Shown: positions 10,320 through 64,000 of the stretch, one piece after another
Layout: each line of letters begins with the position of its first letter
Numbering within the stretch: position 1 is the stretch's first letter
Virus record (IMG/VR): IMGVR_UViG_3300017963_000011
Location: 41,135-105,134 of that record
Source: a virus
DNA length: 64,000 bases
Reading direction: 5' to 3' (one strand)
The notes under the pieces: generated by a model
What the model saw: the letters and a program-made list of their open reading frames with translations, nothing else
The model's database searches: none
What the model was told of the DNA's origin: nothing
Program-made: the position numbers and the translations under genes

Positions 10320-10913
10320 ATGGCAAATATTCCTGCGCTTGCGGGCTATCAAACAGCTAACGGAGAAGCTGCTCCTGCCAAGTTCGGCGGCAGTGATGTC
10401 CTTACAGATCCTAACGGGAATGTCCTCCTGACCGCTGTCGGTGGTGCTGGTTCTATCGTGCCATTCGATACTCCAGTCATTGTCATGGCATATAACAACA
10501 CGCTCTATAGTGGAGCTACAACTGGCTCTCCATGGAACTACTCTAGCCAACACGCATTCAATGGTGTGATCGATCTTAGTGGCTTGACACCGGCAATTCC
10601 TTCTGGCGCTAAAGCTGTGATTCTGGTAACACTGGCCAATCTGTACAATACAGTGGGGGGTGCAGCGCGAGTCATTAACATGTACGCTGCCAAGCTGCAT
10701 GCTTCTCTCCCAACCGCAGCGCAATACGTCATGAGTAGCGCATACCATGTCGGTGGCGTTGCCGCTGGTGCTGAAGGAGTAGAATACGATGCCAATCCGG
10801 GTTACGGTATTGTGAATTTCAATGGTGACAGGACCGTGGCTATAGCCGCCTATTCTAACAACAGTCCAAACAATGCGTACTGGTACTGGAACGTAGCCGG
10901 GTACACGATCTAG
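10320..10913 (+). CDS. Tail fibre / receptor-binding protein 3
   Basis: N-terminus MANIPALAG...SDVLTDPNGNVL is related to the two upstream genes. Confidence 0.6.
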   Translation: MANIPALAGYQTANGEAAPAKFGGSDVLTDPNGNVLLTAVGGAGSIVPFDTPVIVMAYNNTLYSGATTGSPWNYSSQHAFNGVIDLSGLTPAIPSGAKAVILVTLANLYNTVGGAARVINMYAAKLHASLPTAAQYVMSSAYHVGGVAAGAEGVEYDANPGYGIVNFNGDRTVAIAAYSNNSPNNAYWYWNVAGYTI

Positions 10914-11475: not shown

Positions 11476-12465
11476 ATGGGAAGGGATGGGGCAGTGGCCG
11501 ATCAGATTAGAATTCTGGTCGTCGATAATGACGAAACATCTATCCAGTCTCTTCGAGACATGCTTGGTGAATATGATTTCGAGGTCGAGGACGTTCGGGA
11601 TTCTCGCAAAGTCCTAGATCATCTTCGACAAACCAATGACTATTCTCTTCTCATTCTTGACATCAACATGCCTCACAAGGATGGCGTGACGCTGGCGTCT
11701 CAGGTCAGAAATACTCTTCACTACGACACGCCTATCTTGTTCGTATCGGCTGATATCAGCAAGACCAACCTATCGCGCATTCGTAGAATGAGTCTCGGTG
11801 GCCACACCGTAGAGTTTCTGAAGAAGGGTAGCTTCAATTCAGAGATCCTCTTCAACGTAGCTATGGCCTTGATCAAGGAACGCATCTCCACAAACAACGT
11901 TTCTGAGATCAAAGGACGCGTTTCCAAGATGCAGAAATCCCAGGATGAGATCAAAGAAACAATATCTGATTTCATCCTGAAGCTGGAAGACAAGCCACTC
12001 GTGTCCATTGATCATTGCAAGGCTCAATCCGAGGAACTTGTGAAGTCCCTTCGCAAGGAGGTCATTGGCATCACCCTCGGGGAAGCTAGTAAGAAACTAG
12101 ATGAGGCACTGAAGCCTGAGCCTCTCGCTGTGAGGATTGGCGCCGCGCTCACGGAGAAGCCCCAAGCTATCGAGCCTGCTCTTGAACCAAATCTCATGTT
12201 TGCAAAGACACGCCAAGCCGCCGCATGGAAGATGGCCGTCTATTTCTTGCTCGTTATCTTTGCTGGGCTCTGCATTTTCTGGGGAAACATGTGGACCAAA
12301 GCTGATCATGCCGACGATGGGGTTCGTAAGCTAGAGATCCAGCAAAAGCAAGTTATCGATACGATGCAACAACAAACGACTGCGATGAAATCTCATTTCA
12401 GGCGTCTTCAGAAAATGTTCAAGTCCAACCCAAGCATGTGGGTTACAACCAAAACGCACCCGTAA
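11476..12465 (+). CDS. Response-regulator receiver (REC) domain fused to coiled coil and transmembrane helix
   Basis: ILVVDND, LLILDINMP..DG, PILFVSA and FLKK are the canonical REC motifs; TM segment WKMAVYFLLVIFAGLCIFW; lies directly before the endolysin. Confidence 0.85.
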   Translation: MGRDGAVADQIRILVVDNDETSIQSLRDMLGEYDFEVEDVRDSRKVLDHLRQTNDYSLLILDINMPHKDGVTLASQVRNTLHYDTPILFVSADISKTNLSRIRRMSLGGHTVEFLKKGSFNSEILFNVAMALIKERISTNNVSEIKGRVSKMQKSQDEIKETISDFILKLEDKPLVSIDHCKAQSEELVKSLRKEVIGITLGEASKKLDEALKPEPLAVRIGAALTEKPQAIEPALEPNLMFAKTRQAAAWKMAVYFLLVIFAGLCIFWGNMWTKADHADDGVRKLEIQQKQVIDTMQQQTTAMKSHFRRLQKMFKSNPSMWVTTKTHP

Positions 12466-36305: not shown

Positions 36306-37304
36306 ATGCTAACCGAGACACTCAGAAAGTTCCACCGCTCGCAGAGCGGTTCGCCCGTATTCTCACTCCCTTCCGGGAAGCGCGTTGATCTGCGAGAGAA
36401 GCGCTCTCGGCAGGATCTTGCCAAGTGGATCGCCGAGCAGTTCAACGGCGATCTTGATGCGGCCGACGACGCAGTGAGTTCTGTCATGGCAAGGGCATTG
36501 AGGGAAGCCCGAGCCCCTTGGCCATACCTCCTATCGGCTCTCCGTGGTATCGCCGAAGAAGCTGACACGAGAGAGCCTCTTTCTCGCCAATGCACGAATG
36601 CCATGTTCTCCTCTCGCATCGGCAAGTGCCACTACCGCATCGCTCGCAATGTGCTCGGCGACCTTACCGACCCCCTCACCCTTAGTGGCCGAGAATACAA
36701 CCTGTCAAATTCCGACGACTACTCGCTGGCCGTTCAAGAACTTCTAGGCGATGACCCTTTCCCGCTGTTCATGGCCACTGCCCCTCAGTTCGCCAAGTTC
36801 ATTACGAGCCGGCGCCTCGTCGATGACTTGATCCAGTACCGTGCCATCACCAACGACGTGAGCGAGGCAAAGGAAGCTCAGGCTACCTTTCTCGGCTTTG
36901 TCGGGCAGGCACTTGCACAGTGTGTTTTGACGAATGAGTTCCGTGAATGTCTCAAGGTCATCAAGAGCTTCTATTCCCGGTTCTTCCACCCGGCTATCCT
37001 CGGGGTGAGGGTGCCGGGTATCGGAGTCATGCGCTGTCTTAGCAACGCAGGCTATCGTGAGTTTCTCCACGCCCTCTTCAGGCACCGGCAGGATCACGAA
37101 CTCCTACGCTCCGATTGGTTGCGGCAGGCGTTGCACCTGGGCATCGTAACGAACCCTATTTCGTGGCTCGTGTTCATACTCACCCGGAACGTTGATACCG
37201 CCGAGGACTGGATGGATGTCCAGTGGTATGATACAATTAAGATGACGCAGGAGTTTGGACTCAGGCGTGTAACTGAGCTTTTCCCGAATCTGGTGGCGGT
37301 ATGA
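36306..37304 (+). CDS. Hypothetical protein
   Basis: 332 aa; TAAGGAG SD; opposite strand to its surroundings. Confidence 0.75.
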   Translation: MLTETLRKFHRSQSGSPVFSLPSGKRVDLREKRSRQDLAKWIAEQFNGDLDAADDAVSSVMARALREARAPWPYLLSALRGIAEEADTREPLSRQCTNAMFSSRIGKCHYRIARNVLGDLTDPLTLSGREYNLSNSDDYSLAVQELLGDDPFPLFMATAPQFAKFITSRRLVDDLIQYRAITNDVSEAKEAQATFLGFVGQALAQCVLTNEFRECLKVIKSFYSRFFHPAILGVRVPGIGVMRCLSNAGYREFLHALFRHRQDHELLRSDWLRQALHLGIVTNPISWLVFILTRNVDTAEDWMDVQWYDTIKMTQEFGLRRVTELFPNLVAV

Positions 37305-39789: not shown

Positions 39790-41610
39790 CTACAACCTGA
39801 CTTTCTTCTTCACGCGCTTCTTGCCGTTTCCTTTGGCACGGTGCTTGTCGGGATCGTAGGCGAGCGGGATGTTGCCGTCCAGTGCCCACTGCCTGTACTG
39901 CTCGGTCCTCTCTGGGTGAGTCACGCTTGCCGGCGTGGTATTCTTGATCGTCTCCAGGAACATAGCCGTTGTGGCCTTCTGGTCTGGAGCCCGGTAGGCT
40001 TTCTTGAGCACGGCCTTCGCCAAGCTCTCGATTTCGGAACCGGACCACCCTTCCAGGTCCACAGCGATGCGGCAGATCTCGAAGTCCTCGGAGTTGTAGT
40101 TGTTCATCTCGTTCCGTCGCTTGTCGATGTGATATCGCAGGATCTGCTCGCGAGCCTCTGGCTCGGTCGGGAGATCCATGAACCACTTGCCATCGGTGTC
40201 GATGCGGTGGCCACCGAACAACTCGGGCGGCAGCTTGCTTGGGTCGTTGCTGGTGAAGATGAAGTAGACGCCCTCCCGCTTCTTATGATCCGAGAGAAAG
40301 CTCAGGAACGTTCCGAAGAAGCGCTTGGTCGTGCCGGCGTCCACTTTGTCGGAACTGTCCGACCCGCCCAGCCCCTTCTCCACCTCGTCGATCACCACGA
40401 ACACCGGGCTCAGTGCCACACAGGTGTCCAGCGCCCGCCTGAGCTTGGCGTTCGTTTCACCGATGTGCGAGGAGAAGCATTTCTCCAGGCGCAGGATCAG
40501 CGTGGGCTTCTTCGCCTTGCTCCCGAGCCTCTTGGCTACGGCCGTTTTGCCGGTCCCGGAGGGGCCGACGAGCAGACAACCGAGAGGCCACGAGCCGATG
40601 AACTCTTTGGCTTTTTTGGTGAAGGCATCGACCAGTTCGTCGAAATACGCCATCAAGTCATCGCAGCCTTTGATGCCTTCGAGTGGTTCGTCCGGGTCAC
40701 AGAACTCCATGATGCCATCCTTGGCGAGGATCTCGGCCTTCATCCGTCCGACCACGAGAGGATCGAGCACGCCATCCCGACTCAGCGAGAGAGCCGTGAT
40801 ATTCATTGCCTCCTGACGAGTCAGACCTCGGAGCCCTTCGGCGATCTCCGAAACGGTGAACTCGCCAAGGATCTCGGCTCGTTCCTCGTCCGTTTCTGCG
40901 TTCTCAAGGATGACCTCGACAACCTTCTCCAGGTCAGGCTGCGTAGGCAGTGGCAGATGGAACTTGCGGAAGCATCGGCTCAAGCGCTCGGGCACCTCAT
41001 CGTTGCCGGTGAGGATGATGATGAGCGAGCCTGTGCTCTCGTATTCCATCTTGCGAAGTCGCAGCATGTCGGCCACGCCTTCACGATCGAAGTAGCGGTC
41101 GAAGTCTTTGAGGACAACGCAGACCGGCTCATCCTCGGTGGAAGGGACATTCACGGCATCGTCCAGGGCAGCGCCGAATTGCCGGAAGAAGTTGCGTAGC
41201 GAGAGGAAGCGCTCGTTCGGGGCCGGCTCGATGCTGATGCCGCTCTTGAAACGTTGCTTCAACTCGGGTCGGCTGGAGATCATCTCGCGGATCGTGAACA
41301 GCTTGTTGTCCACCGGGCGAGTGACCATCATCTGGCGAATGGGAGCGACGATGTTGCCGTCCTCATCGACCTCGTTGTCCTCGTAGTCGGCCAGACCACG
41401 GGATGCGTCCCACTCATACACATGCAGCGGCGGGTAGTATTCGTCCTCTCCCTCTTTCGGCCGCTTGCGTTTGACCTTCTTGTGGACCGCTTCCGCGATC
41501 AGTTCCATGGCTTCCTCGTAGTCGTGGGACACCAGCCATGCGGCGCCCCCTCCCGACGAGGCGAAGTGGTGCAAGTCCTTGACGATGGGCTTGCTGAACT
41601 CCTGATCCAT
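39790..41610 (-). CDS. AAA+ ATPase (Ycf46-like)
   Basis: Walker A GPSGTGKT, Walker B VIDEVEKG, TSND.SKLPPEL; degenerate N-terminal AAA domain (VLKDFD). Confidence 0.9.
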   Translation of the reverse strand: MDQEFSKPIVKDLHHFASSGGGAAWLVSHDYEEAMELIAEAVHKKVKRKRPKEGEDEYYPPLHVYEWDASRGLADYEDNEVDEDGNIVAPIRQMMVTRPVDNKLFTIREMISSRPELKQRFKSGISIEPAPNERFLSLRNFFRQFGAALDDAVNVPSTEDEPVCVVLKDFDRYFDREGVADMLRLRKMEYESTGSLIIILTGNDEVPERLSRCFRKFHLPLPTQPDLEKVVEVILENAETDEERAEILGEFTVSEIAEGLRGLTRQEAMNITALSLSRDGVLDPLVVGRMKAEILAKDGIMEFCDPDEPLEGIKGCDDLMAYFDELVDAFTKKAKEFIGSWPLGCLLVGPSGTGKTAVAKRLGSKAKKPTLILRLEKCFSSHIGETNAKLRRALDTCVALSPVFVVIDEVEKGLGGSDSSDKVDAGTTKRFFGTFLSFLSDHKKREGVYFIFTSNDPSKLPPELFGGHRIDTDGKWFMDLPTEPEAREQILRYHIDKRRNEMNNYNSEDFEICRIAVDLEGWSGSEIESLAKAVLKKAYRAPDQKATTAMFLETIKNTTPASVTHPERTEQYRQWALDGNIPLAYDPDKHRAKGNGKKRVKKKVRL

Positions 41611-41642
41611 TGTATTCCGTCCTCTCATTCTCGGCGCCGAGA

Positions 41643-52961: not shown

Positions 52962-54132
52962 GACTACCTCCAGAGTAAGAGCGCGCCCCCCTGTTTTATT
53001 AGACGGCGGGGGGCTAGTTAGTACCGTCATCCTCTTGATCGTTGGATGTACGCCGGGCGGCTCAACTGCTCACGAGTTATGCCTTGCAATTATCACGACT
53101 TGTGCCGTGTGCGTGGGGCCTCGGTCACAGGAGCCTTGTGCCCGTAAAACGAAACCCGGCTAGGGAGGATGGGAAGTGTCGTAGTTGTTACGGAGCACTG
53201 ATCCTCATTCCATTCTCGGCGCCGAGAATGCCGGTCACTCTCGGCCGCCCTTCGGCTTTGGGCTTGCTGCCCGTCACCCTATAGTGCCGAGAATGGCAAG
53301 CCTCTGCCGGGACGCGTTTCTACATCTATTATATAGCATGTTTCCAGGTCGTATTCCACTACCCTCTCGCGCGCGTGCGCACGCACCACTACCCTCTCGC
53401 ATGTGTGTTCTCGTTTTCACCACCTTACCCGTCACCACCCTCTCATGCGCGTTATCACCACCTTACCCCCCACCACCTTATCGACGCGTATCACCCCCGT
53501 GCGTCATGGTTGACGCCTCGACGGGTCTACGCGCGGGCGGGCGCGGGTTGACGGGTCTACGCGGGCGGGCGCGCGTATAGTATATATAGACACGAGAGAC
53601 GCGCGCGGGCGCCCGCGCCCGCGAAGAAAGGAATCGCACGCGCGCATGCGGGCGCGCGTCCTATAGACGGGCGGGCGCGTCTATCGGGCCGGCTCGCTTC
53701 CTTTTCTTCGGGCGTGCGGGCGGGCGCATGCGTGCGCGCGTCCTATAGACGGCGCGCGAATCCATTGAATCAGCGGGCGCCGCCCATGCTACGTCTCATG
53801 GCGTAGCGCTACCACGGGCGGGCGCCGGCCGCCGGCTCGGGCCGGCGGCCCGAGCGGCCCGCAAGGCGGCGCCAGATTCGCCACGAGAGCGCCGGAATCG
53901 GCCCGAATTGGGCCGCAAGCCAGCCGGCCCGAGTATCGGCCCGGCTCGGCCCCTTGCGGCCGTTAGACGGCGAATCTGCTAGACGCTACGCACGCGCCCG
54001 CGTCTATATAGTACATGACGCACGGGCACGGGCGCGCGAAGAAAAGGAAAGGGCCGGCCCTTTCAATGCGTAGACGGGCGCGCGTATAAAGAAAGCCGCC
54101 GGGCACGGCCCGGCGGCGCTGGCGCTCGGCTG

Positions 54133-54312
54133 TCAGCCGAGCCATGCGAGCATACGCACGAGAGCGAGCCCGCCGGCCGTGCCGATCGCCATGGCGAAGG
54201 CGGCCCCTAGCAGAATCACGCGCGCCCGCATTCGACGGGCGGCGCGCTCGGCTCGTATGTCTTCGATACGAGACGGAATCACTCGAAATGAAACGCACAT
54301 GGCTTGTCTCAT
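54133..54312 (-). CDS. Small membrane protein (59 aa)
   Basis: MRQAMC...VILLGAAFAMAIGTAGGLALVRMLAWLG; ATGA overlap upstream; followed by a terminator. Confidence 0.55.
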   Translation of the reverse strand: MRQAMCVSFRVIPSRIEDIRAERAARRMRARVILLGAAFAMAIGTAGGLALVRMLAWLG

Positions 54313-54773
54313 GGCGTCTCGATTCCAGCCACGCTATATACGTCTTCGATAACGTAATACGTGGCGCCGCGCCGCCCGATATAGACAACGCGGCCCGGCT
54401 TGAAAAACGAGCCGCCCGAGCAAGACGCTTGCACGTCTTCGAAGCGGCCCATGTGTACTGTCGCCGTCTCGCCGTCTCGTGCGCGTATCACGCCGATTCG
54501 GTTATCAAGCTCGTATACATGGAATTCGGCGCCCGTACCACGGGCGGCCGGCGCTACGGTCGCCGAGCCCGGCGCAATGCCGAGCCCGGCGCCGTTTGCC
54601 GCGCCGTTTCATCCTACAAGCGAGACGAGCACGAGCACGAGCATGACGAGCCCGAGCACGGCCGAGCCGGCCCGCTTCGCCAGCCGCAAGCGGCGGGCGT
54701 CTCGCTCGGCGAGAATGGCGCGGGCGGCGCGCCGCGTTTCCTTGCGAATCTTCTTCGCCACGATACCTCGCAT
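54309..54773 (-). pseudogene. Lipoprotein-like gene with an in-frame TGA at the lipobox Cys position (pseudogene or recoded)
   Basis: MRGIVAKK...VMLVLVLVSLVG-TGA(54609-54611)-NGAANG... continues in frame to 54309; GAAAGGGG SD and a sigma54 promoter upstream. Confidence 0.6.
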
Positions 54774-54854
54774 GTGTGTTCCCCTTTCGGGAGTCTCGGC
54801 CGGCCGCTCGGCTCGGCGGCTCGGGCCGTCTAACCTATGTCGCCGAGAATGGCA

Positions 54855-54870
54855 AGCAAGGGCCGTGCCA
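54855..54870 (-). promoter_or_regulatory. Sigma54 -24/-12 promoter
   Basis: TGGCAC-GGCCC-TTGCT. Confidence 0.8.
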
Positions 54871-55302
54871 GCCGGGCCGCATTCTCGGCGCCGAGAATGA
54901 GCCGGCGCTTCGTATCATGACGCCCGATTCATTAAATTTTTTTGCCCCTGTATAGTACGCGTGCATGCGTCTATATATAGGGGCCAAATTGCTTCCTTTT
55001 CTTCGGGCGCACGGGCGCGCGCCCGTGCGGGCGCGTGCGTATAGTATATATAGACATGTATCGTCTAGCAGATTCGCCGTCTAACGGCCGATCGCCTTTC
55101 ATGCGGCCCGATACTCGGGCGGCCGGCCGATCGGCCGAATCCGGCCCGATTCCGGGCGTCTCGTGGCGAATCTGGCGCGCCGCTCGGGCGCCCGAGCGGG
55201 CCGCCGGCCGGCGGCGGGCGTAGCGCTACCACGAGACGGCGCGCGCGCGTATAAGAAAAGCCGCCGGCCGATCGGCCGGCGGCCCGAGTCTCGGCGCCGA
55301 GA

Positions 55303-55710
55303 CTACATGCGGCGGCGGCGCCGGCTCTCGTGCTCTCGCCATTCGCGCCGCATGCGGGCGTCTCGGCGGCGGGCGTCTCGATCGCGCCGCTTGTAAAGCC
55401 TACGTATGGCGTGCTCGGCGCGCTTATACGTCTCGCTCTCGGGCTCGAATTGCCCGAGTAGATTCCACAGTGGCGAATCGTCACACGTCATGCCTTCGCC
55501 GTGCTCGTTTACGGCTTGCGCTACTCGATTCAGCGCTTCGGCCGCGCCTTTTGCCATGTCTCGGGCCGTGCGGCGCTCTCGCTCGGCGCCGGGCCGGCCG
55601 GCGGCTTCGGCGAAGATTCGCATGTCGTCTTGTCTCGTGGCGTTTTTGTACATGACGCCCGCCATGAGACGCAACATGAAGGCGACGACGTTTCGCGTGT
55701 CTTTGTCCAT
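55303..55710 (-). CDS. Hypothetical protein
   Basis: 135 aa; stop abuts palindrome 55289, then a terminator. Confidence 0.6.
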   Translation of the reverse strand: MDKDTRNVVAFMLRLMAGVMYKNATRQDDMRIFAEAAGRPGAERERRTARDMAKGAAEALNRVAQAVNEHGEGMTCDDSPLWNLLGQFEPESETYKRAEHAIRRLYKRRDRDARRRDARMRREWREHESRRRRRM

Positions 55711-55712
55711 GT

Positions 55713-55997
55713 CTAGTCTACTCGCTTCCCGTGCTCGTCAATCTCGTATGCGTCAAGATACATGGTCACACTGGCTTCGGCGGGCTCGGCGACGGCGGCG
55801 CGGCGCTGGCGCCAGCCGTCCATGCGCGGGCCGAGCGAGCGGCCCGCCGAGACGAGCCCGAGAGCGAGCACGGCGCCGAGCACGAGCCCGGCGGCCCATG
55901 CGAAGGCGCGGCGGCGGCGGCGCCGGCGGCCGGCGGCCCGTGCGCGAATGATAGACCGTGCCATGTGGCTTCGGCCCTTAATCGTTTCGTCTTTCAC
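55713..55997 (-). CDS. Small membrane protein
   Basis: GAAAGGGGAA SD and GTG; Arg-rich stretch followed by hydrophobic AFAWAAGLVLGAVLALGLVS. Confidence 0.6.
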   Translation of the reverse strand: MKDETIKGRSHMARSIIRARAAGRRRRRRRAFAWAAGLVLGAVLALGLVSAGRSLGPRMDGWRQRRAAVAEPAEASVTMYLDAYEIDEHGKRVD

Positions 55998-56050
55998 GTG
56001 TTCCCCTTTCGGCCCGGCGCCGCTCGGCCGGCGGCGCACGCATTCGACTA

Positions 56051-56066
56051 TGCAAGGGCCGTGCCA
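56051..56066 (-). promoter_or_regulatory. Sigma54 -24/-12 promoter
   Basis: TGGCAC-GGCCC-TTGCA. Confidence 0.85.
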
Positions 56067-56434
56067 TTCTCGGCCATGACATGTCAGCCGTGCCCGAGCA
56101 CGGCGCCGAGAGCGAGCCGGCCCATGTTCTTGGCGCCGAGAATGGCGGGCGCCAGCCGGGCCGAGACTGACAGCCATGCCAGTCTCGCCGAAGCATACAA
56201 TGTCAGCCGAGCGGCTGAAAGCCGCTTCCAGAGCGGATTAGAGCCTACTGACAAAAATGTCAGTATGGCTGACATGGATGCCAGCCGGGCCGGCCTTATA
56301 GTAGACGGGCGCATGACGCGCGCCCGCACGCGCGCCCGCACGCGCGCCCGAAGAATCGGAAGCGATCGGCCATACAACGCGCGCGGGCGGGCGCGTAGAC
56401 TGCGCCCGCGTCATGTATATAGGGCCGCCGAGCT

Positions 56435-56450
56435 TGGCACGGCCCTTGCA
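56435..56450 (+). promoter_or_regulatory. Sigma54 -24/-12 promoter
   Basis: TTGGCAC-GGCCC-TTGCA. Confidence 0.85.
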
Positions 56451-56662
56451 TAGCAATCGGCGGCCGAAGGGGAAGCGAGGAAACGGCCGGCGCCATTCTC
56501 GGCGCCGAGAATATGACGGCCCGAGCCGGGCCGAGTATTGCCAGACATAGCACGGGCACGGGAAAGGCGGCCGGCGCCGGCCGAGAGCGGCGCGCGATAG
56601 TTCTTTGACATGTGAATACGAATCAACGCGTATCAACTACTGACATGCGAAAGGGAACACGC

Positions 56663-58102
56663 ATGAAGAAGAAACGCAAGAAAGGCGAATCCGTCAAGAC
56701 GGGCGCGCGTGGCGCAAACGTGCCGAAACAAAAAGCCGCCGCCGAGCGCAAGGCGGCCGAGAGCAACGCCCGAGACAAGAAAGCAGCCGGAATCAAGCCG
56801 CCGCCGCCCGTCAAGCCGAGCCCGGCGCCCGAGCCGAAGCCGGCCGAGCCCGCGCCGAATCCCATGGCGGCGCCCGAGACGCTTCATGACGGCAAGACGA
56901 GCAAGCCGAACACGCCCGGCGCGCCCGTAGCGCTGCATGGCTCGCTCATTCTCGAAACGTTCATGGGCGCCGCCGTCGCTCTCGTGTGTCGTCTCATGCT
57001 CGGCGCGCTTTATGACGAAGCCGCCGCGCTCATGGAAGCGACGAAGGCCGAACGCGCCGAGCTTGACGGCAAGACGGCGCCGAAGACGGCCCGAGACATG
57101 GACAAGAAACGCGCCGCTCTCACTACGCGCTACACTCGCACGCAAGACAATGCAATCAAACGCGGCGCGTATCTCGCCGTGATTCTGGCGACATGGGACA
57201 TTCGCCTTGACTTTACGGGAACGAACACGGCCGCATGGACATGGGCGCGTGACATTAACGGGAAAATCGTGAAAGACGAAAAGACGGGCAAGCCGAAGCG
57301 CATGACTGTCAAGCTACAAGACGTGTTCATGTCCGTACTGACACAAAACTACGGAAGCGCCATGAAGGAATTGCAATGCCTTCGCACGGCCGCCGAATTC
57401 CTGCCAGTATGCCCGGAAGCGATCCGGGCCGCTCTCGTGCCCGAGAGCGACGGCGCACGGCCCGAGAGCGAGAGCGCGGCAAGCATGGGGCTCGTGCTCG
57501 ATTTTCTTGCCAAACACGTGCATACCGATTCCGTGCCATACGTAAGGAAACACGCGAAGGAAAAGGGAATCGGCGTCACGTGGCAAGCTCTCACAAACGA
57601 GAGCGAGCGCGCCGCGCTCGGCCGGCCCGACAAAGGCAAGGGGAAGGGGAAAGACAAGACGAAAGGCAAGCCGCCCGCGAAGAAAAAGCAAAAGCATGTG
57701 AACGTCTACAACGCACGCGGCGAAAAGGTTACGCTTGACATGGAACGCGCCAAGAATGCAGCCGCCGCCGCCGAAGGCAAGGCCGAAGAGAGTGAAACGG
57801 AGCGCGCCGCCCGTATCGTCGATGGAGTAGACATGAGCGAAACGGAGCGCGAAGCCGTCAAAAAGGCGCGCGAAGCCGGTCTGAATGACGGATGGGCCGC
57901 GCTTCGAAGCCTCGCGTCTCAACTCATGGGCGATCCGAGCACCGAAGGCTTCGACATGACGGGCGCCATGATTTTCGTCGAATGGCTCTCGGGACAAATC
58001 GCGGCGGCCGGAGACGCCGCCGCCGAGCGGGCCGAGCTTAGGCATGCCACGTCGAAGGCTAACAAGGCGGCCGTAGTGGGCGCCGCCCGAGTGAACGCGT
58101 AG
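56663..58102 (+). CDS. Lys/Ala-rich hypothetical protein (479 aa)
   Basis: Long ORF with a GAAAGGGAA SD; followed by a hairpin and T-tract at 58111-58145. Confidence 0.75.
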   Translation: MKKKRKKGESVKTGARGANVPKQKAAAERKAAESNARDKKAAGIKPPPPVKPSPAPEPKPAEPAPNPMAAPETLHDGKTSKPNTPGAPVALHGSLILETFMGAAVALVCRLMLGALYDEAAALMEATKAERAELDGKTAPKTARDMDKKRAALTTRYTRTQDNAIKRGAYLAVILATWDIRLDFTGTNTAAWTWARDINGKIVKDEKTGKPKRMTVKLQDVFMSVLTQNYGSAMKELQCLRTAAEFLPVCPEAIRAALVPESDGARPESESAASMGLVLDFLAKHVHTDSVPYVRKHAKEKGIGVTWQALTNESERAALGRPDKGKGKGKDKTKGKPPAKKKQKHVNVYNARGEKVTLDMERAKNAAAAAEGKAEESETERAARIVDGVDMSETEREAVKKAREAGLNDGWAALRSLASQLMGDPSTEGFDMTGAMIFVEWLSGQIAAAGDAAAERAELRHATSKANKAAVVGAARVNA

Positions 58103-58580
58103 AGTCTCCCGAGCCGCCGGGCCGTGCCCGGCGGCTCTCTTTTTCTACGCGCGCATGGTAGCGCTACCACGGGCCGCACGCTCGGCGCCAGCCGGGCCGA
58201 AAGGGGCCGCCGAGCCGCCCGAGATTCGCCACGAGACGCCCGGAATCGGCCCGGATTCGTCCGATCGCATGGCGAGACGGGCCGAGACAAGGGCCGGCCG
58301 CCTTGCGGGCGTTAAACGGCGAATCTGCTAGACAAGCGGCGCGCATGCGCGTCCTATATATACATGACGCATGCGCAGTCTACGCACGCACGCCCGCACG
58401 CCCGCACGCGCCCGCGCGTGCGCACGCCCGAAGAATGGAAGCGATCCGGCCCATGAGACGCGCGCACGTCTATAAGGTCGAATCCCTACCTTTTCTTCGG
58501 GCGCACGCGTGCGTGCGGGCGCGCATGTATATAAGAAAAGCCGCCGGCCCGAGCGGGCCGGCGGCGCTGGCGCCGGGCGT

Positions 58581-59003
58581 TTAGACGTACACATGCCCGC
58601 AACGATAGCAATGGAGAGCGGGCATGTCAGTCTCGCCATACGTGCAAGGCGAGAGCAACGCGCCGCACACGCTACATTCTTCGCATTCGTGCGCTTCGGG
58701 TGCGTCGTATCCTTGCCACAATTCGCGCCCGTGCTCGTCTCTCGGCCATTCGCCGTTGATAGTCAGCCGGCCCGTATCTCGCGCCCATTGCAGCGCGGCG
58801 CGGCGGGCGTCTTTCTTGCGCGCCTTATCCGCAATGGAGAGCGCCAGCCGCCGGCCGCTCGGGCAAGCCGGCCCGGCGCCGATTCCTTCGACGTGCCAGC
58901 CGTAGGATTCATGCGTGACAGTAGCAAGGCGGGCGCCGTCGAAAAGCCGCACGAGCACGAGCCGGCGCCGGCTCTCGCGCTTCCATGCATAGTCGTTTAC
59001 CAT
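58581..59003 (-). CDS. Hypothetical protein with C-terminal Zn ribbon(s)
   Basis: GAAAGGGG SD; CSVC...CYRC; sigma54 promoter upstream and terminator downstream. Confidence 0.65.
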   Translation of the reverse strand: MVNDYAWKRESRRRLVLVRLFDGARLATVTHESYGWHVEGIGAGPACPSGRRLALSIADKARKKDARRAALQWARDTGRLTINGEWPRDEHGRELWQGYDAPEAHECEECSVCGALLSPCTYGETDMPALHCYRCGHVYV

Positions 59004-59032
59004 TCTCGGCCCCTTTCGTCGCCTTTTTCACG

Positions 59033-59048
59033 TGCAAGCGCCGTGCCA
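59033..59048 (-). promoter_or_regulatory. Sigma54 -24/-12 promoter
   Basis: TGGCAC-GGCGC-TTGCA. Confidence 0.85.
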
Positions 59049-59367
59049 TGTTTCGGCTGACATAGCAGACATGAGCGAGCCCGCATGACTACGGCCGGCG
59101 GCCCGCTCATTCTCGGCGCCGAGACTGGCGAGACTGGCATGGCTGTCAGTCTCGCCGAAGCCCGGAATGTCGGCCGAGAGCCCGAGAGCCGCCATGGAAG
59201 CGGATTTGAGCCTACTGACATTTTTGTCACTACGGCTGACATGGATGCCAGCCGCCGGCCCTATATAGTATACGCTCGCATGACGCGCGCGCCCGCGCGT
59301 GCCCGAAGAAAAGGAAGCGATCCGGCCCATGAACGTGCGCGCGTCATGTATATAGGGCCGCCGAGCT

Positions 59368-59383
59368 TGGCACGGCCCTTGCA
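59368..59383 (+). promoter_or_regulatory. Sigma54 -24/-12 promoter
   Basis: TTGGCAC-GGCCC-TTGCA. Confidence 0.85.
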
Positions 59384-59589
59384 TTGTCAATCGGCGCCGA
59401 AGAGGAAGCCGGGCCGAGCAAGGCGGGCGCGGCGGGCCGCAAGGCCGAAGCAAGAAATGCCACGAGCACGAGCCGGCGCATGTGTTCGCAAAATATGGCC
59501 GGCCCGAGTAGCCGAGCCGCCGCAAGGCGGCCCGGCTTCGGGACATGAGAGCGGCCCGAGCCGGGCCGCACGTATCGAAGGGAACACAC

Positions 59590-59916
59590 ATGAGAATCGA
59601 CGTCGAAGCGATCATGAGCGGGCATGCGCTTGCCGAGCGCGGCAAGCTGCGCAAGCGGCGCGCGCTCTCTCACTCCATGCGCTCTCGGGCCGTGCGCGGC
59701 ATTCGGGCCGATCGGGAAGCCGCCGCCGAGAGCGCCGAGCCGCCCGCCCGGCGGCCCGAGCCCGCCGGCCGCCGGCCGATCGCCATGAGCGTGCCCGAGC
59801 CCGCCACGTACCACGGCGAGACGCCCGCGCCGTGCCACGTCGAAGGCGCCGGCTCGTGCGGCTCGTGCCCGGATTGCATGAACGTGCGCCACGAGCCCGA
59901 GCCGCCGGCCGAGTAG
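59590..59916 (+). CDS. Hypothetical protein with a Cys cluster
   Basis: GAAGGGAA SD; CH..GAGSCGSCPDC; terminator near 59960-59990. Confidence 0.55.
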   Translation: MRIDVEAIMSGHALAERGKLRKRRALSHSMRSRAVRGIRADREAAAESAEPPARRPEPAGRRPIAMSVPEPATYHGETPAPCHVEGAGSCGSCPDCMNVRHEPEPPAE

Positions 59917-60329
59917 CGCGCCGCCGGGCTCTCGGCCCCTTGCCCGGCGCTTGCCACGAGACGCCCGCCCGTGCGGGCGTCTTTCTTTATACGTGCGCGC
60001 GCCCGTAGTAGTGCCGAATCCCTTCCTTTTCTTGGCGGGCGCGGGCGCGGGCGTGCGTCATGTACTATATAGACGCGGGCGCGTGCGGCTTGTCTTACAG
60101 ATTCGCCGTCTAACGGCCGATCGGCCGGCGGGCCGGCCCAACATACGGCCCGAGCCGAGAGCGGCCCTATACGGCCCGATTCCGGCCGTCTCGTGGCGAA
60201 TCTCGGCGCCCGTCTCGGCCCCTATGGGCCGGCGCCGGCCCGCGTGCGCATGGTAGCGCTACCACGGCCGCCCGCGCGCGCGTATAGAAAAAGCCGCCGG
60301 CCCTTCGGCCGGCGGCTCTCGTGCGCCGT

Positions 60330-60656
60330 CTAGTGAATCGCCTTGAAGCGGGCGCCCGTCTCGGGCATGGCTTCGATCGGCACGAGCCATGCGCCGTCTC
60401 TGTAGTAGACATGGCGGCCGTCTTGCCAGACAACGCGCCAGCCGCCGAGCACGGCGCGGGCGCCGGGCCGCTGGATTTTCACGTATCCGATTCGGCGCCA
60501 GCCGTAGCGCGCCGCCTTCGGCCCGCTGATTTGAATCGCGCCGTCGCTCTCCCGATACGGCGCGAGCGTCAAATCCAGACACAAGCCGCGATTCACAAGC
60601 ATGCGGCTCGTGAAAAGCTCGCCAGTCTCCATGCTGATTTTCTCGAATGTCGCCAT
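60330..60656 (-). CDS. Hypothetical protein
   Basis: GAAAGGGG SD before MATFEKIS; terminator downstream. Confidence 0.65.
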   Translation of the reverse strand: MATFEKISMETGELFTSRMLVNRGLCLDLTLAPYRESDGAIQISGPKAARYGWRRIGYVKIQRPGARAVLGGWRVVWQDGRHVYYRDGAWLVPIEAMPETGARFKAIH

Positions 60657-60707
60657 GTCGGCCCCTTTCGTCTCGGCCCGGCGGCTTGCCGTGCTCGATT
60701 TTTGATA

Positions 60708-60723
60708 TGCGATTCCCGTGCCA
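60708..60723 (-). promoter_or_regulatory. Sigma54 -24/-12 promoter
   Basis: TTGGCAC-GGGAA-TCGCA. Confidence 0.75.
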
Positions 60724-61432
60724 AGTCTCGGCGCTGGCATGTCAGCCGAGAGCCCGAGCGCGCACGAGAGCCGGCGCCGGGCCGGCTGCTCGCTAGTCTC
60801 GGCGCCGAGAATGCCGCAAGGGCCGAATCGGAATTCTCGATTCCGATTTTTTCGGCGAGAGGCTCTCAAATCCGCTTCCAGAGCGGCTTTCCAGCGATCG
60901 GAACTCCCGGTTCCGATCGGAATTGTCAGTTCCGATTTTGCCCGCAAGCCGCCATGAGAGCCGAAGACAGCCGAGCCGGTCCCTATAGTATACATGCCCG
61001 TGCGCACGCCCGCATGACGCGCGCACGGGCGCGGGCGCGAAGAAAAGGAAGCGATCCGGCCCATGCTACGCGCGCCCGCGCCCGTCTTGTGTCTATATAG
61101 ACACAAAAGACGCCCGCACGGCGGCCGGCCACCGATTCCGGCTGGCGCGGCCCCAAAATACGCCACGAGAGCGCCGGAATCGGCCCGGATTCGGCCGATC
61201 GCAAGCCGGCCCCTATCTCGGCCCGTCTCGCCGAGCGATCGGCCCGGATTCGGCGAATCTGCTAGACAAGCGGCGCGCGCACGCGTCTATATAGAGACAT
61301 GGCGCACATGCGCGCACGCCCGCCCGCGCACGCGAAGAAAAGGAAGGGGAAAAGCCCCCTATAGACGCGCACGGGCACGCGCGCACATGAGAAAAGCCGC
61401 CGGGCCGGCCCGGCGGCTCTCGTGCGGCTCTC

Positions 61433-61624
61433 CTATCCTACGAGCAAGAGAGAGCCGTCCATGAACGCGCTAACCTTTTCGCCCGGCTTCATGTTGCCCG
61501 CATAATCGTACATTTCGCCAGCCGAGACGGTAAACCATGCATAGTCGTCTCGATTCATAATCACCTTGACTTGAATCGCGCTGGCTCTGTTTACCGCGTT
61601 CATAAGCTCGTGTCGGTCCATCAT
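61433..61624 (-). CDS. Hypothetical protein (63 aa)
   Basis: GAAAGGGG SD before MMDRHELMNAV; terminator downstream. Confidence 0.6.
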   Translation of the reverse strand: MMDRHELMNAVNRASAIQVKVIMNRDDYAWFTVSAGEMYDYAGNMKPGEKVSAFMDGSLLLVG

Positions 61625-61675
61625 TTTCGGCCCCTTTCGTCTTGCGGGCGGCTTGCCCGGCTCGCCATTCTTCAA

Positions 61676-61691
61676 TGCAAAGCGTGTGCCA
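61676..61691 (-). promoter_or_regulatory. Sigma54 -24/-12 promoter
   Basis: TTGGCAC-ACGCT-TTGCA. Confidence 0.85.
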
Positions 61692-62138
61692 AGTCTCGCG
61701 CCCGCTGTACACTCTACCACGCCCGCGCCCGTATTCCCCTATAGACGCACGGCGCGAAGAGCAAGGAAGCGAAAAAAGCCGCCCGAGCCGCCGGCCGCCG
61801 CCCGGCGCTACTGACAGCCATGCCAGTCTCGGCGCCGAGAATGACCACGAATCCGGGCCGGCCGGCTGCGCTCAAATCCGCCATGGGCGCCGTTTTGCGG
61901 CCCATACTGACATTTGTGTCACTAGCCGACATTGAGAGCACCGAATCGGCCGAGAGCCGCGCCAGCAAAGCAATACAAGCCGGCCGCCGGCTCGTGCTAC
62001 TGACAAAAATGTCAGTCCCTATATACGTATAAGCGCACGCCCGCATGCGCGCGCCCGTGCGAAGAAAAGGAAGGGATTCGGCCCTATAGACGCGCACGCG
62101 CCCGCATGCGCAGTGTAGCGCTACCACGAGCCGAAACA

Positions 62139-62154
62139 TGGCACGGCGCTTGCA
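62139..62154 (+). promoter_or_regulatory. Sigma54 -24/-12 promoter
   Basis: TGGCAC-GGCGC-TTGCA. Confidence 0.85.
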
Positions 62155-62180
62155 CTAAGGCAAGCGAAAGGGGAAACGAA

Positions 62181-62291
62181 ATGAGCAAGCGAGAACGAAA
62201 CGCCCGCCGCCTCGACTGGCTTATGCAATCGTTCATGGTCGCCGTTATGACGGCCGCCATTCTGGCCTATAACGGTACGATCGTATTCTAG
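62181..62291 (+). CDS. 36-aa membrane peptide
   Basis: GAAAGGGGAA SD; basic N-terminus then a hydrophobic helix. Confidence 0.55.
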   Translation: MSKRERNARRLDWLMQSFMVAVMTAAILAYNGTIVF

Positions 62292-62307
62292 GAAAGGGGA
62301 AAAGACA

Positions 62308-62574
62308 ATGACGCACGAGGAATTCATGAAGCGCCGCGCCGAGCTTTTCGAGGAAGCGAAGCGCATTCTTCGCACGCTGGCGCCCGAGACTCGCATGGCG
62401 AGTGAAACCGAAAAGAGCACGGCCGAGCTTTTCGAAGCCGCGCCGCTCTCGTGCCCGTACTGCGCAAGCAATAACACGAGCACATGCGATTTTGGCGGCC
62501 CGTTTTGCCTCGATTGTGGCGCCACGTTTGACGGCGCCGGCTTCGTCAACGGCGAATGGACGGGCCGCCAGTAA
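62308..62574 (+). CDS. Small Zn-ribbon protein
   Basis: GAAAGGGGAA SD; CPYC...CLDC; terminator near 62595-62625. Confidence 0.65.
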   Translation: MTHEEFMKRRAELFEEAKRILRTLAPETRMASETEKSTAELFEAAPLSCPYCASNNTSTCDFGGPFCLDCGATFDGAGFVNGEWTGRQ

Positions 62575-64000
62575 ATACGCCCGCAAGCATGCAGCCGGCC
62601 GCCGAAAGGCGGCCGGCTCTCTTTATACGCGCATGCCCGCGCCCGCCGTCTTTATTCCCCCTTTATGCGCATGCTTTATATACGCATACGCCCGTATATA
62701 AGGCAAGGAATCCCTACCTTTTCTTCGCACACGCGGGCGCTTATACGCTAGTAATATACATATACGAGCCCGCTTATACATGTATAAGCGTCTATGCGTG
62801 CGCTACTGTACACACGCACGCACGAAGGAAACGGCTCGGCACGGCTGGCAGTATGGCCACGAGGAGGGCCGCAAACGGCCCATTTTGGGCCGATCGGCCT
62901 TCGGCCCTTGCATCGGTATGGCTCGGGCGTATATCGGGCCGGATTCGGGCGCTTAGGGGCTCGGCTTTCTCGTCAATCTCTCGGGCTCGGCTGAACCTTC
63001 CCGCACGCACGCGCGCATGTACGCGTGGCGATCCGAAACATGGCATGCTGGCCAGTGTAGCGCTACCACGAGACGGCGGCCCGGCTTGCGGCTGACATGG
63101 CAAGGCGGCGGGCTCGGCGCTGGCTTGTCAGTCTCGGCGCCGAGAATGCGGCGGCTGACAAGTCAAGGCGCGGGCGTGCTACTGTCAACGCTGTCATATC
63201 AAGCACGTATCCCTTTACTGGCGCGCGTTTCGGCATTGACATGACAACGTTGCCAGTATGGCGCGGCTGACAAGTCAACGCGCAAGAGACGGGCACGGGC
63301 GGGCGTGTGTAGCGTATAGCGCGGGCGCCCGATTCCTTTCCTGGCGCGGGCGCGGGCGTGTGTAGCATATACCACGGACGCGGGCGCCCGTCGACGGGCG
63401 CGGGCGTCTTGCGCGCTCCGTGTGGCCTACCGGGAAACGTTAGACGTATACGTACGAGGCGGCCCACTCCCACGCAGATTTTTTTCAGAAATCCTGGACG
63501 ACCGGAATTCCGTGGTAGCGCTACCACTCGATGCGACTTTGCGCATCGAGTACGACGGTGGTACAGGCTACCAATGGTAGCTGCAACATCAGAAATAAAG
63601 CCGAGGGCCGCCTGAAATCTCAGTATCAAAAAGGTTGCAAACGTATGTGTACACGCTACATTGTGTACATATTACATCGCAAAATGTACCGAGAGCGACT
63701 ACAAAAGTGCGCGTTTTATCCGCTTTTCGCTCATAACAGCGTATTTCTTATTGATCTCTATGCCGATGTAGCGCCTGCTCAGAGAGCAAGCAGCGAGTCC
63801 TGTAGTACCTGCGCCAGAGAATGGATCTAACACGATGCAAGGTACGGTTTCTTCGGTATCGCATGCGCACATCTGCTGCCAGCCTAGTGTGTGATAATCT
63901 GCTACTCCGCGGGTTACGGTCTCGTCTAGTGCTTCTCGTTTGCCTATTTCTCTGAAGCCAGATGCTACCGGGCCTTTGCGTGTAGAGGACTTCCGTTCAA

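Follow-up and report, generated by a model that had tools for sequence, protein, structure and literature searches.

In the final 64 kb of a 105,134-bp phage genome (IMG/VR record IMGVR_UViG_3300017963_000011, positions 41,135 to 105,134; this whole 64,000-nucleotide stretch is hereafter the window) we identified a block from 54.1 to 62.6 kb that, with a probability of about 0.6, comprises eight transcription units, each complete in itself, arrayed in a GC-rich accessory arm. Each unit would combine a sigma-54-type -24/-12 promoter, the ribosome site CGAAAGGGG and one or a few small, mutually unrelated orphan genes, with a strong hairpin/T-tract terminator at the end. At the same estimate, the eight sites are real promoters of the host sigma-54 polymerase, fired by activators that are not phage-encoded. 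The promoter reading taken by itself is well supported by the logic of the sequence and the regulatory story built on it is plausible.

Sigma-54-type sites

The strict consensus TGGCACNNNNNTYGCW has eight exact matches in the window (P1 to P8, Table 1), whereas dinucleotide shuffles averaged 0.19 and never exceeded 1. All eight fall within 8.5 kb, all are intergenic and co-oriented with the next gene, and six of them form three divergent pairs (P2/P3, P4/P5 and P7/P8). The GG doublet of the -24 element and the GC doublet of the -12 element are exactly 10 nt apart in every site, with a -12 box that reads TTGC in seven and TCGC in one. Over the complete genome the consensus is found nine times, the ninth at genome position 17855(+), and none of the nine lies inside a gene body. 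A weighted scan of the genome was bimodal: the nine sites score 21-23 of 23, and 14 background matches appear at threshold 20, where about 10 are expected. Since the scores are bimodal and the other matches at the threshold are about as numerous as shuffles give, the nine sites are not the tail of a random distribution. A preliminary description of this DNA, made from its letters, had reported eight near-consensus sites facing genes, their arrangement in pairs and their identity with the sigma-54 -24/-12 consensus, and had anticipated an enrichment in this region. All of this holds, with eight of the nine genomic sites located in the block.

The flanks of the sites differ between most copies. 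Around P3 and P5 a stretch of about 75 nt is identical, beyond which the two copies differ up to the ribosome site, upstream identity amounts to 10 nt for P4/P8 and to 7 nt for P6/P7, and P1 and P2 have only the core in common with other sites. In the core, both P6 (GGGAA spacer and TCGC) and P7 (ACGCT spacer) keep the GG-N10-GC frame; their changes are mainly in the spacer, apart from the TCGC for TTGC in the -12 box of P6. This site pattern is as expected of a constrained protein-binding element that resides in modules which were also duplicated.

A search for sigma-70-type promoters that could serve the cassette genes returned a single match in 52-64 kb, situated inside a gene, against 3.0 expected; good TTGACA-N17-TATAAT sites are present elsewhere in the genome.

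The ninth site (TGGCACGACGCTTGCT, genome 17855-17910, outside the window) is found 36 nt before the start of the terminase large subunit and overlaps a near-perfect TTGACA-N17-TATTAT sigma-70-type promoter, and the two together are possibly a dual promoter that heads the structural arm. Two terminase relatives of 58% identity (L123 and L124) do not conserve the site.

Ribosome sites, terminators and cargo proteins

All eight cassettes have CGAAAGGGG in common. Written as CGAA(A)GGG(G/A)-N-ATG/GTG, the ribosome site has nine copies in the genome, eight of which precede the first gene of a cassette and one of which lies elsewhere. Six copies of GCCGCCGG-loop-CCGGCGGC followed by a T tract were detected in the genome, all of them within the cassette block and each closing a cassette, whereas the two remaining cassettes (5 and 8) are closed by variant hairpin/T-tract terminators.

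The twelve cargo proteins (36-479 aa), several of which have a single hydrophobic helix or a Cys-rich ribbon, show no relationship to each other and no paralogue elsewhere in the genome, and none exceeded the threshold of any Pfam or PHROGs family. Three of them were searched deeper (a 5.8-billion-protein search, a representative search and the ESM Atlas) and proved orphans or nearly so, with nothing usable on function. The called frames are supported by their GC3>GC1>GC2 order, of which overlapping long ORFs in other frames show no clear sign. A shared ribosome site, similar GC-rich terminators and unrelated genes had been put forward beforehand and are recovered here, two of the terminators being variants.

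Control regions and candidate enhancer dyads

The three divergent intergenic control regions are mutually homologous. Starting at the minus-strand promoter and moving right, their elements are, in this order, the palindrome TCTCGGCGCCGAGA, the inverted repeat CGAGACTGACA…TGCCAGTCTCG, CCGC-N7-GCGG, TGACA-N4-TGTCA, a TATA-flanked GC-rich element with GAAGAAAAGGAAG and finally the plus-strand promoter. TGACA-N4-TGTCA has four copies in the genome, all in divergent control regions, at -157 to -343 from the flanking promoters, the copy nearest to each promoter lying at -157 to -250. The region upstream of P6 differs from the divergent ones and holds all three copies of ATCGGAA-N7-TTCCGAT that the whole genome contains. 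Judged by their position and confinement, these two dyads are the best candidates for enhancer sites, and since there are two kinds, at least two different binders or inputs are suggested. The palindrome TCTCGGCGCCGAGA is found at about -46 to -107 of four minus-strand promoters.

Reader and activator

The sigma-54 closed complex is stable and silent in the absence of an activator, and firing needs an AAA+ enhancer-binding protein (bEBP). Whole-genome searches identified no RpoN domain (Sigma54_DBD, CBD or AID), no GAFTGA-like or ESGTGKE-like peptide in any frame, and, for the Sigma54_activat domain, nothing more than a match to Walker A alone, in an AAA protein of the classic PF00004 family. 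The lack of a GAFTGA-containing bEBP, noted earlier for the window, hence extends to the whole genome, as does the lack of rpoN. Sigma-70-family factors need about 17 nt between their boxes, as compared to 5 nt here. Because the phage has no rpoN and its own factor (see below) belongs to the sigma-70 family with its spacing of about 17 nt, the host sigma-54 holoenzyme is the only known reader that fits.

The AAA protein just mentioned (window 39790-41628 (-), 612 aa) consists of a classic AAA (PF00004) domain and an N-terminal part of 340 aa without assignment. By its sequence it is no bEBP, since it belongs to the PF00004 family, lacks the GAFTGA loop and matches the sigma-54 activator model at Walker A only. 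Window 11476-12462 (+) encodes a protein that combines a receiver (REC) domain with a coiled coil and a membrane helix and lacks an output domain. No other two-component-type part was found in the phage. A protein of 332 aa (window 36306-37301), which lies behind a strong sigma-70-type promoter, has a faint match to sigma region 2 only.

Genome setting and relatives

The IMG/VR record, which carries direct terminal repeats, has a completeness rating of 100%; the window forms its final 64 kb. Identified gene products are a large terminase, a head protease, a tape-measure protein and tail proteins, a family-A-like DNA polymerase, a DnaB-like helicase, a second helicase and an exonuclease, as well as ThyX, primase Toprim domains and methylases. 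When its 103 ORFs were scanned against Pfam, no integrase or recombinase family turned up. The phage is complete and tailed, and probably virulent, since no integrase family was seen among these ORFs. GC content is 63-68% in the cassette block versus 48-60% in the remainder of the window. The cassette region is not an assembly artefact, since the genome-wide palindromes GTAGCGCTAC and TCTCGGCGCCGAGA traverse it and three contigs have records of its cargo proteins.

Nucleotide, protein and motif searches of phage, viral and metagenome records revealed no relative of the phage that has this scaffold. There was no nucleotide match among 50,697 phage records, single-protein scans of viral contigs gave no relative, and a terminase profile search retrieved only short or distant relatives without the accessory arm; a terminase relative at 55% identity was located on a 103-kb contig. 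The palindrome TCTCGGCGCCGAGAATG has four isolated single-copy matches in viral contigs, none of them with the other motifs of this phage. Two further kinds of candidate kin were discarded: metagenome loci with the promoter and ribosome site pattern look like ordinary bacterial promoter-RBS-ATG units, and 13-mers shared with other GC-rich loci are of low complexity only. Terminase relatives at 28-34% identity occur in contigs binned in two metagenome-assembled genomes (MAGs) of Planctomycetia that show no excess of sigma-54 sites. We do not name these as host, since the terminase kinship is too weak and there is no such excess.

Comparison with known systems

Phage use of sigma-54 has been called rare, and the sole example cited is Pseudomonas aeruginosa phage YuA (Yuavirus), which is described as depending strictly on the sigma-54 of its host (PMC5053324), and ONT-cappable-seq has tied one YuA promoter to a sigma-54-like region (PMC10914365). 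In the GenBank record of YuA three active '-24/-12' promoter fragments are annotated, in the structural (late) module, and the strict consensus used here has no match in these fragments. YuA resembles the phage studied here in that it is tailed, is said to run part of its programme on host sigma-54 and shows no annotated bEBP over 50 kb of its record. Its fragments are, however, not arranged as cassettes and belong to the structural module, whereas here cassettes lie in the accessory arm. No relationship links the two phages: the terminase of the present one has its best cultured relatives in Microbacterium phages, at about 30% identity.

Bacterial RpoN promoters such as glnAp2, pspA and nifH share with the sites described here TGGCAC-N5-TTGCW, the GG-N10-GC spacing and short to medium leaders. 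They, including the divergent nifH/nifJ type, also have upstream dyads at 100-200 bp and divergent pairs around a shared control region. Here, in contrast, the putative promoters are virus-borne, without rpoN or an activator gene, and are followed by one and the same ribosome site, orphan genes and the same terminator. Natural bacterial-looking metagenome loci with the same promoter-GAAAGGGG-ATG layout exist.

Like the morons of tailed phages the cassettes have, as judged from structure and composition, their own promoter and terminator, an atypical base composition and unrelated cargo. Classical morons are single units of temperate phages with sigma-70 promoters, whereas here there are eight standardised sigma-54-type units in a phage with no detectable integrase. 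Expression from a prophage in a lysogen, another mark of morons, finds no counterpart in the 103 ORFs scanned against Pfam. An integron-type cassette array, in which promoterless cassettes end in an attC site and adjoin an integron integrase, was rejected, since each unit has its own promoter, both orientations occur, no integrase was found among the scanned ORFs and the spacer repeats lack an R''/R' core pair.

The consensus also clusters in other viral contigs. An IMG/VR scan with TGGCACGGCNCTTGCA found at least 118 loci, about as many as expected by chance. They hold 47 further strict sites, where about 3 are expected; 31 of the 118 have two or more. Several copies each of the same consensus were found in L028/L018, L024/G011, L082, L104 and L126. 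The L028/L018 records have four sites in 300 bp, and G011, a complete phage of 36.6 kb, has three identical co-oriented sites at 10431, 17455 and 22475. Gene-free tandem arrays of TGGCACGGCGCTTGCA, with copies 19-30 bp apart, occupy L082:9778-9950 and L104:7376-7500. At a contig end (positions 1-600), L126 (IMGVR_UViG_3300002231_000542; 35% GC, a distant terminase relative at 32% identity) has 73-bp tandem units, each with two sigma-54-type sites face to face and with five such sites in the repeat, followed by other short tandem repeats with no gene downstream. By its layout this terminal array does not look like a promoter. None of five site-rich viral records tested, one of them 100% complete, contains a bEBP gene. 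These contigs share neither sequence nor scaffold with the present phage, and instead of one promoter per cassette several hold tandem arrays free of genes. Judged from these sequences, clustering of sigma-54 sites is wider than this phage, and some instances are not promoter-like, while the one described here is.

The preliminary description knew of no phage region built in this way. Literature searches brought up no account of phage arrays of sigma-54 promoters; the statement has to be tempered because of the reported sigma-54 dependence of YuA (PMC5053324, PMC10914365) and the site clusters in other viral contigs. Phage use of sigma-54 is already known and the system is thus not wholly unprecedented. 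New is the standardised cassette layout; the number and perfection of the sites and the absence of an activator gene are also notable.

Interpretation

We infer a sigma-54 reading of the sites, firing by a host activator and the timing in infection. The probably early expression, the host bEBP and the dependence on host physiological state that the preliminary description proposed are plausible parts of this reading. Host polymerase with sigma-54 would dock at each site as a silent closed complex and would fire only upon ATP hydrolysis by an AAA+ enhancer-binding activator that the phage does not encode. This activator would bind the dyads 140-250 bp upstream, TGACA-N4-TGTCA in case of the divergent pairs and the three ATCGGAA-N7-TTCCGAT copies in case of P6. 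The promoter reading is supported by the site statistics, the retained GG-N10-GC frame amid differing flanks, the placement of the sites, the lack of another promoter, the insulation of the units, the confined dyads, the precedent of YuA and the similar bacterial-looking loci.

Several observations weigh against it. The candidate enhancer dyads, at -140 to -250, are at the far end of the usual range. The palindrome TCTCGGCGCCGAGA also occurs at 15 gene junctions without a sigma-54 motif and is therefore not specific to these promoters. The phage encodes its own sigma-70-family factor with regions 2, 3 and 4 (252 aa, genome 9932-10687(-), outside the window) and has other repeated promoter-like motifs, so that another reader is formally conceivable. 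Finally, the gene-free tandem or face-to-face arrays in L082, L104 and L126 hint at a non-promoter use of the same consensus.

Host sigma-54 polymerase could dock as proposed but be activated by an unrecognised phage protein, or the phage could make initiation independent of an activator, in which case the cassettes would follow the phage's own clock and not host physiology. Many phage proteins are orphans, a 612-aa AAA ATPase and a REC-domain protein are encoded, and a bEBP is lacking both here and in the five other site-rich viral records, all of which would suit this explanation. We nevertheless consider it rather unlikely, given that the AAA protein is of the classic family, with the missing loop and the partial match described above, and that we know of no sigma-54 activator other than bEBPs.

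It is likewise unlikely, and slightly more so, that the sites serve as decoys, roadblocks or insulators between units, occupied by sigma-54 polymerase or by sigma-54 alone but yielding no productive transcription, with the cassettes read from other, unrecognised promoters. Each site is single, aimed at a gene and placed 16-202 nt before a start codon with a standard ribosome site, and no alternative promoter is detectable, which is hard to reconcile with such a role; the stability and silence of sigma-54 closed complexes without activator and the gene-free consensus arrays of other viral contigs are what speaks for it.

An improbable explanation is that the motif is read by a phage-encoded protein, either the sigma-70-family factor or a DNA-binding regulator, and resembles a sigma-54 promoter by chance or mimicry. 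The presence of that factor and of several other phage-specific repeated motifs would agree with this, but in six sites all 11 specified positions of the consensus are matched, the extra G of TGGCACG among them, the distance between the boxes does not suit a sigma-70-family factor, and the same consensus is found in unrelated viral contigs of 35-66% GC. That the copies are passive, functionless duplication products of a repeated spacer element is very improbable: the block is repeat-rich as a whole and the flanks of P3/P5, P4/P8 and P6/P7 are partly identical, but P1 and P2 share the core only, conservation drops at the motif edges in most pairs, and orientation and gene distance are regular.

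Host sigma-54 promoters fired by activators from outside the phage hence form the reading we prefer. A bolder extension of it is a plug-and-play platform, in which cargo is swapped between standard modules bounded by the spacer repeats of about 230 bp described below and is fired by host stress or damage activators (e.g. a PspF- or RtcR-like bEBP) or by an unrecognised phage activator. We regard this platform as unlikely; that the cargo is interchangeable we infer from unrelated genes in repeated modules alone. If it were true, each cargo would be released only on a given host alarm, for instance as counter-defence.

Cassette map and other repeated elements

The coordinates of the cassettes and of the spacer elements are given in Table 1.

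Table 1. Features of the cassette block and repeated elements, in window coordinates. Predicted starts were computed with the C of the GC doublet taken as -12; a dot marks elements without assigned strand.
Feature	Position	Strand	Description
T1	54095..54117	-	hairpin GCCGCCGGGCCGTGCCCGGCGGC, then TTTCTTTATA
Cassette 1 cargo	54133..54773	-	54-aa protein with C-terminal hydrophobic helix (54609-54773); one to three further small ORFs, 54309-54491 and 54133-54312 possible
P1	54855..54870	-	sigma-54-type site TGGCACGGCCCTTGCT; predicted start ~54844, 71 nt before ATG at 54773; predicted transcript runs directly into a copy of the TTGCCATTCTCGGC..ATAGG motif
T2	55258..55285	-	hairpin/T-tract terminator
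Cassette 2 cargo	55303..55997	-	94-aa membrane-type protein (55713-55997) and 135-aa Arg-rich protein (55303-55710)
P2	56051..56066	-	TGGCACGGCCCTTGCA; predicted start ~56040, 43 nt before GTG at 55997
Dyad TGACAAAAATGTCA	56249..56262	.	midway between P2 and P3, ~-215 and ~-205 from their predicted starts; candidate activator site
P3	56435..56450	+	TGGCACGGCCCTTGCA; predicted start ~56461; leader 202 nt
Cassette 3 cargo	56663..58102	+	479-aa orphan protein rich in Lys/Ala/Glu
T3	58111..58137	+	terminator
T4	58540..58565	-	terminator
Cassette 4 cargo	58581..59003	-	140-aa orphan, Cys-rich C-terminus
P4	59033..59048	-	TGGCACGGCGCTTGCA; predicted start ~59022, 19 nt before ATG
Dyad TGACATTTTTGTCA	59216..59229	.	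between P4 and P5, ~-200 and ~-171 from predicted starts
P5	59368..59383	+	TGGCACGGCCCTTGCA; leader 196 nt
Cassette 5 cargo	59590..59916	+	108-aa orphan with CxxC pair
T5	59958..59983	+	variant hairpin/T-tract terminator
T6	60286..60316	-	terminator
Cassette 6 cargo	60330..60656	-	108-aa protein; sole similarity weak, repeat-like, to very long proteins
P6	60708..60723	-	TGGCACGGGAATCGCA; predicted start ~60697, 41 nt before ATG
Three dyads ATCGGAA-N7-TTCCGAT	60827..60936	.	starts 60827, 60897, 60916; ~-140, -210, -229 from P6
T7	61390..61417	-	terminator
Cassette 7 cargo	61433..61624	-	63-aa orphan
P7	61676..61691	-	TGGCACACGCTTTGCA; predicted start ~61665, 41 nt before ATG
Two dyads TGACA-N4-TGTCA	61908-61921, 62001-62014	.	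between P7 and P8
P8	62139..62154	+	TGGCACGGCGCTTGCA; predicted start ~62165, 16 nt before ATG
Cassette 8 cargo	62181..62574	+	36-aa membrane peptide (62181-62291) and 88-aa zinc-ribbon-like protein (62308-62574)
T8	62593..62618	+	variant hairpin/T-tract terminator
Spacer copies, ~230 bp	53795-54030(+), 55020-55245(-), 58150-58375(+), 60045-60275(-), 61085-61310(+), 62800-63010(+)		last copy degenerate
TATA-flanked element	59280-59345, 61014-61080, 62036-62100		example copies
Palindrome GTAGCGCTAC	2996, 8583, 11450, 53803, 55220, 58158, 60253, 62115, 63057, 63515		example positions

Between 53795 and 63010 the cassette units are separated by six copies, mostly in alternating orientation, of a composite spacer repeat of about 230 bp. 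It consists of the palindrome GGTAGCGCTACC, a possible hairpin closed by AGATTCGCC/GGCGAATCT, which shows a few compensatory changes, and a TATATAG box. About 13 copies of the TATA-flanked GC-rich inverted repeat with the purine run GAAGAAAAGGAAG(C/G)GAT are spread over 53600-63360. Each of the three plus-strand sigma-54-type sites has a copy immediately upstream, and other copies stand by themselves in spacers; read on the opposite strand, some resemble weak hairpin/CTTTTCTTC terminators.

The motif TTGCCATTCTCGGCnCTATAGG(G/T)T, ending in a T7-like CTATAGG, has six minus-strand copies (48567, 52167, 52326, 52759, 53287 and 54843), two of which follow terminators while another is fused to P1. 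The motif probably represents a class of promoter specific to the phage. A T7-like polymerase as its reader was looked for and discarded: there was no PF00940 match, in a search whose control was uninformative, and the large orphan ORFs gave no Pfam hit.

The 10-bp palindrome GTAGCGCTAC has 35 copies in 105 kb, often at gene junctions, and is also enriched in the two terminase relatives of 58% identity (3 and 6 copies in 10-16 kb). Of the 14-bp palindrome TCTCGGCGCCGAGA there are 22 perfect copies and one variant between 28916 and 63145. All belong to the replication/accessory arm, the structural arm being devoid of them, and most lie between a stop codon and the next ribosome site.

Implications

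Published work on phage transcription deals almost wholly with sigma-70, phage sigma factors and phage polymerases. Sigma-54 promoters need an ATP-burning activator, and the eight genes would therefore be tied to a signal. If the activator is that of the host, the phage would read host physiology or stress before it expresses the cassette genes; if it is the phage's own, it would be a new kind of sigma-54 activator. The sigma-54 consensus is very well conserved across bacteria, hence the eight promoters should be testable in vitro with a heterologous holoenzyme. The uniform cassettes would also provide a natural example of insulated, standardised expression units.

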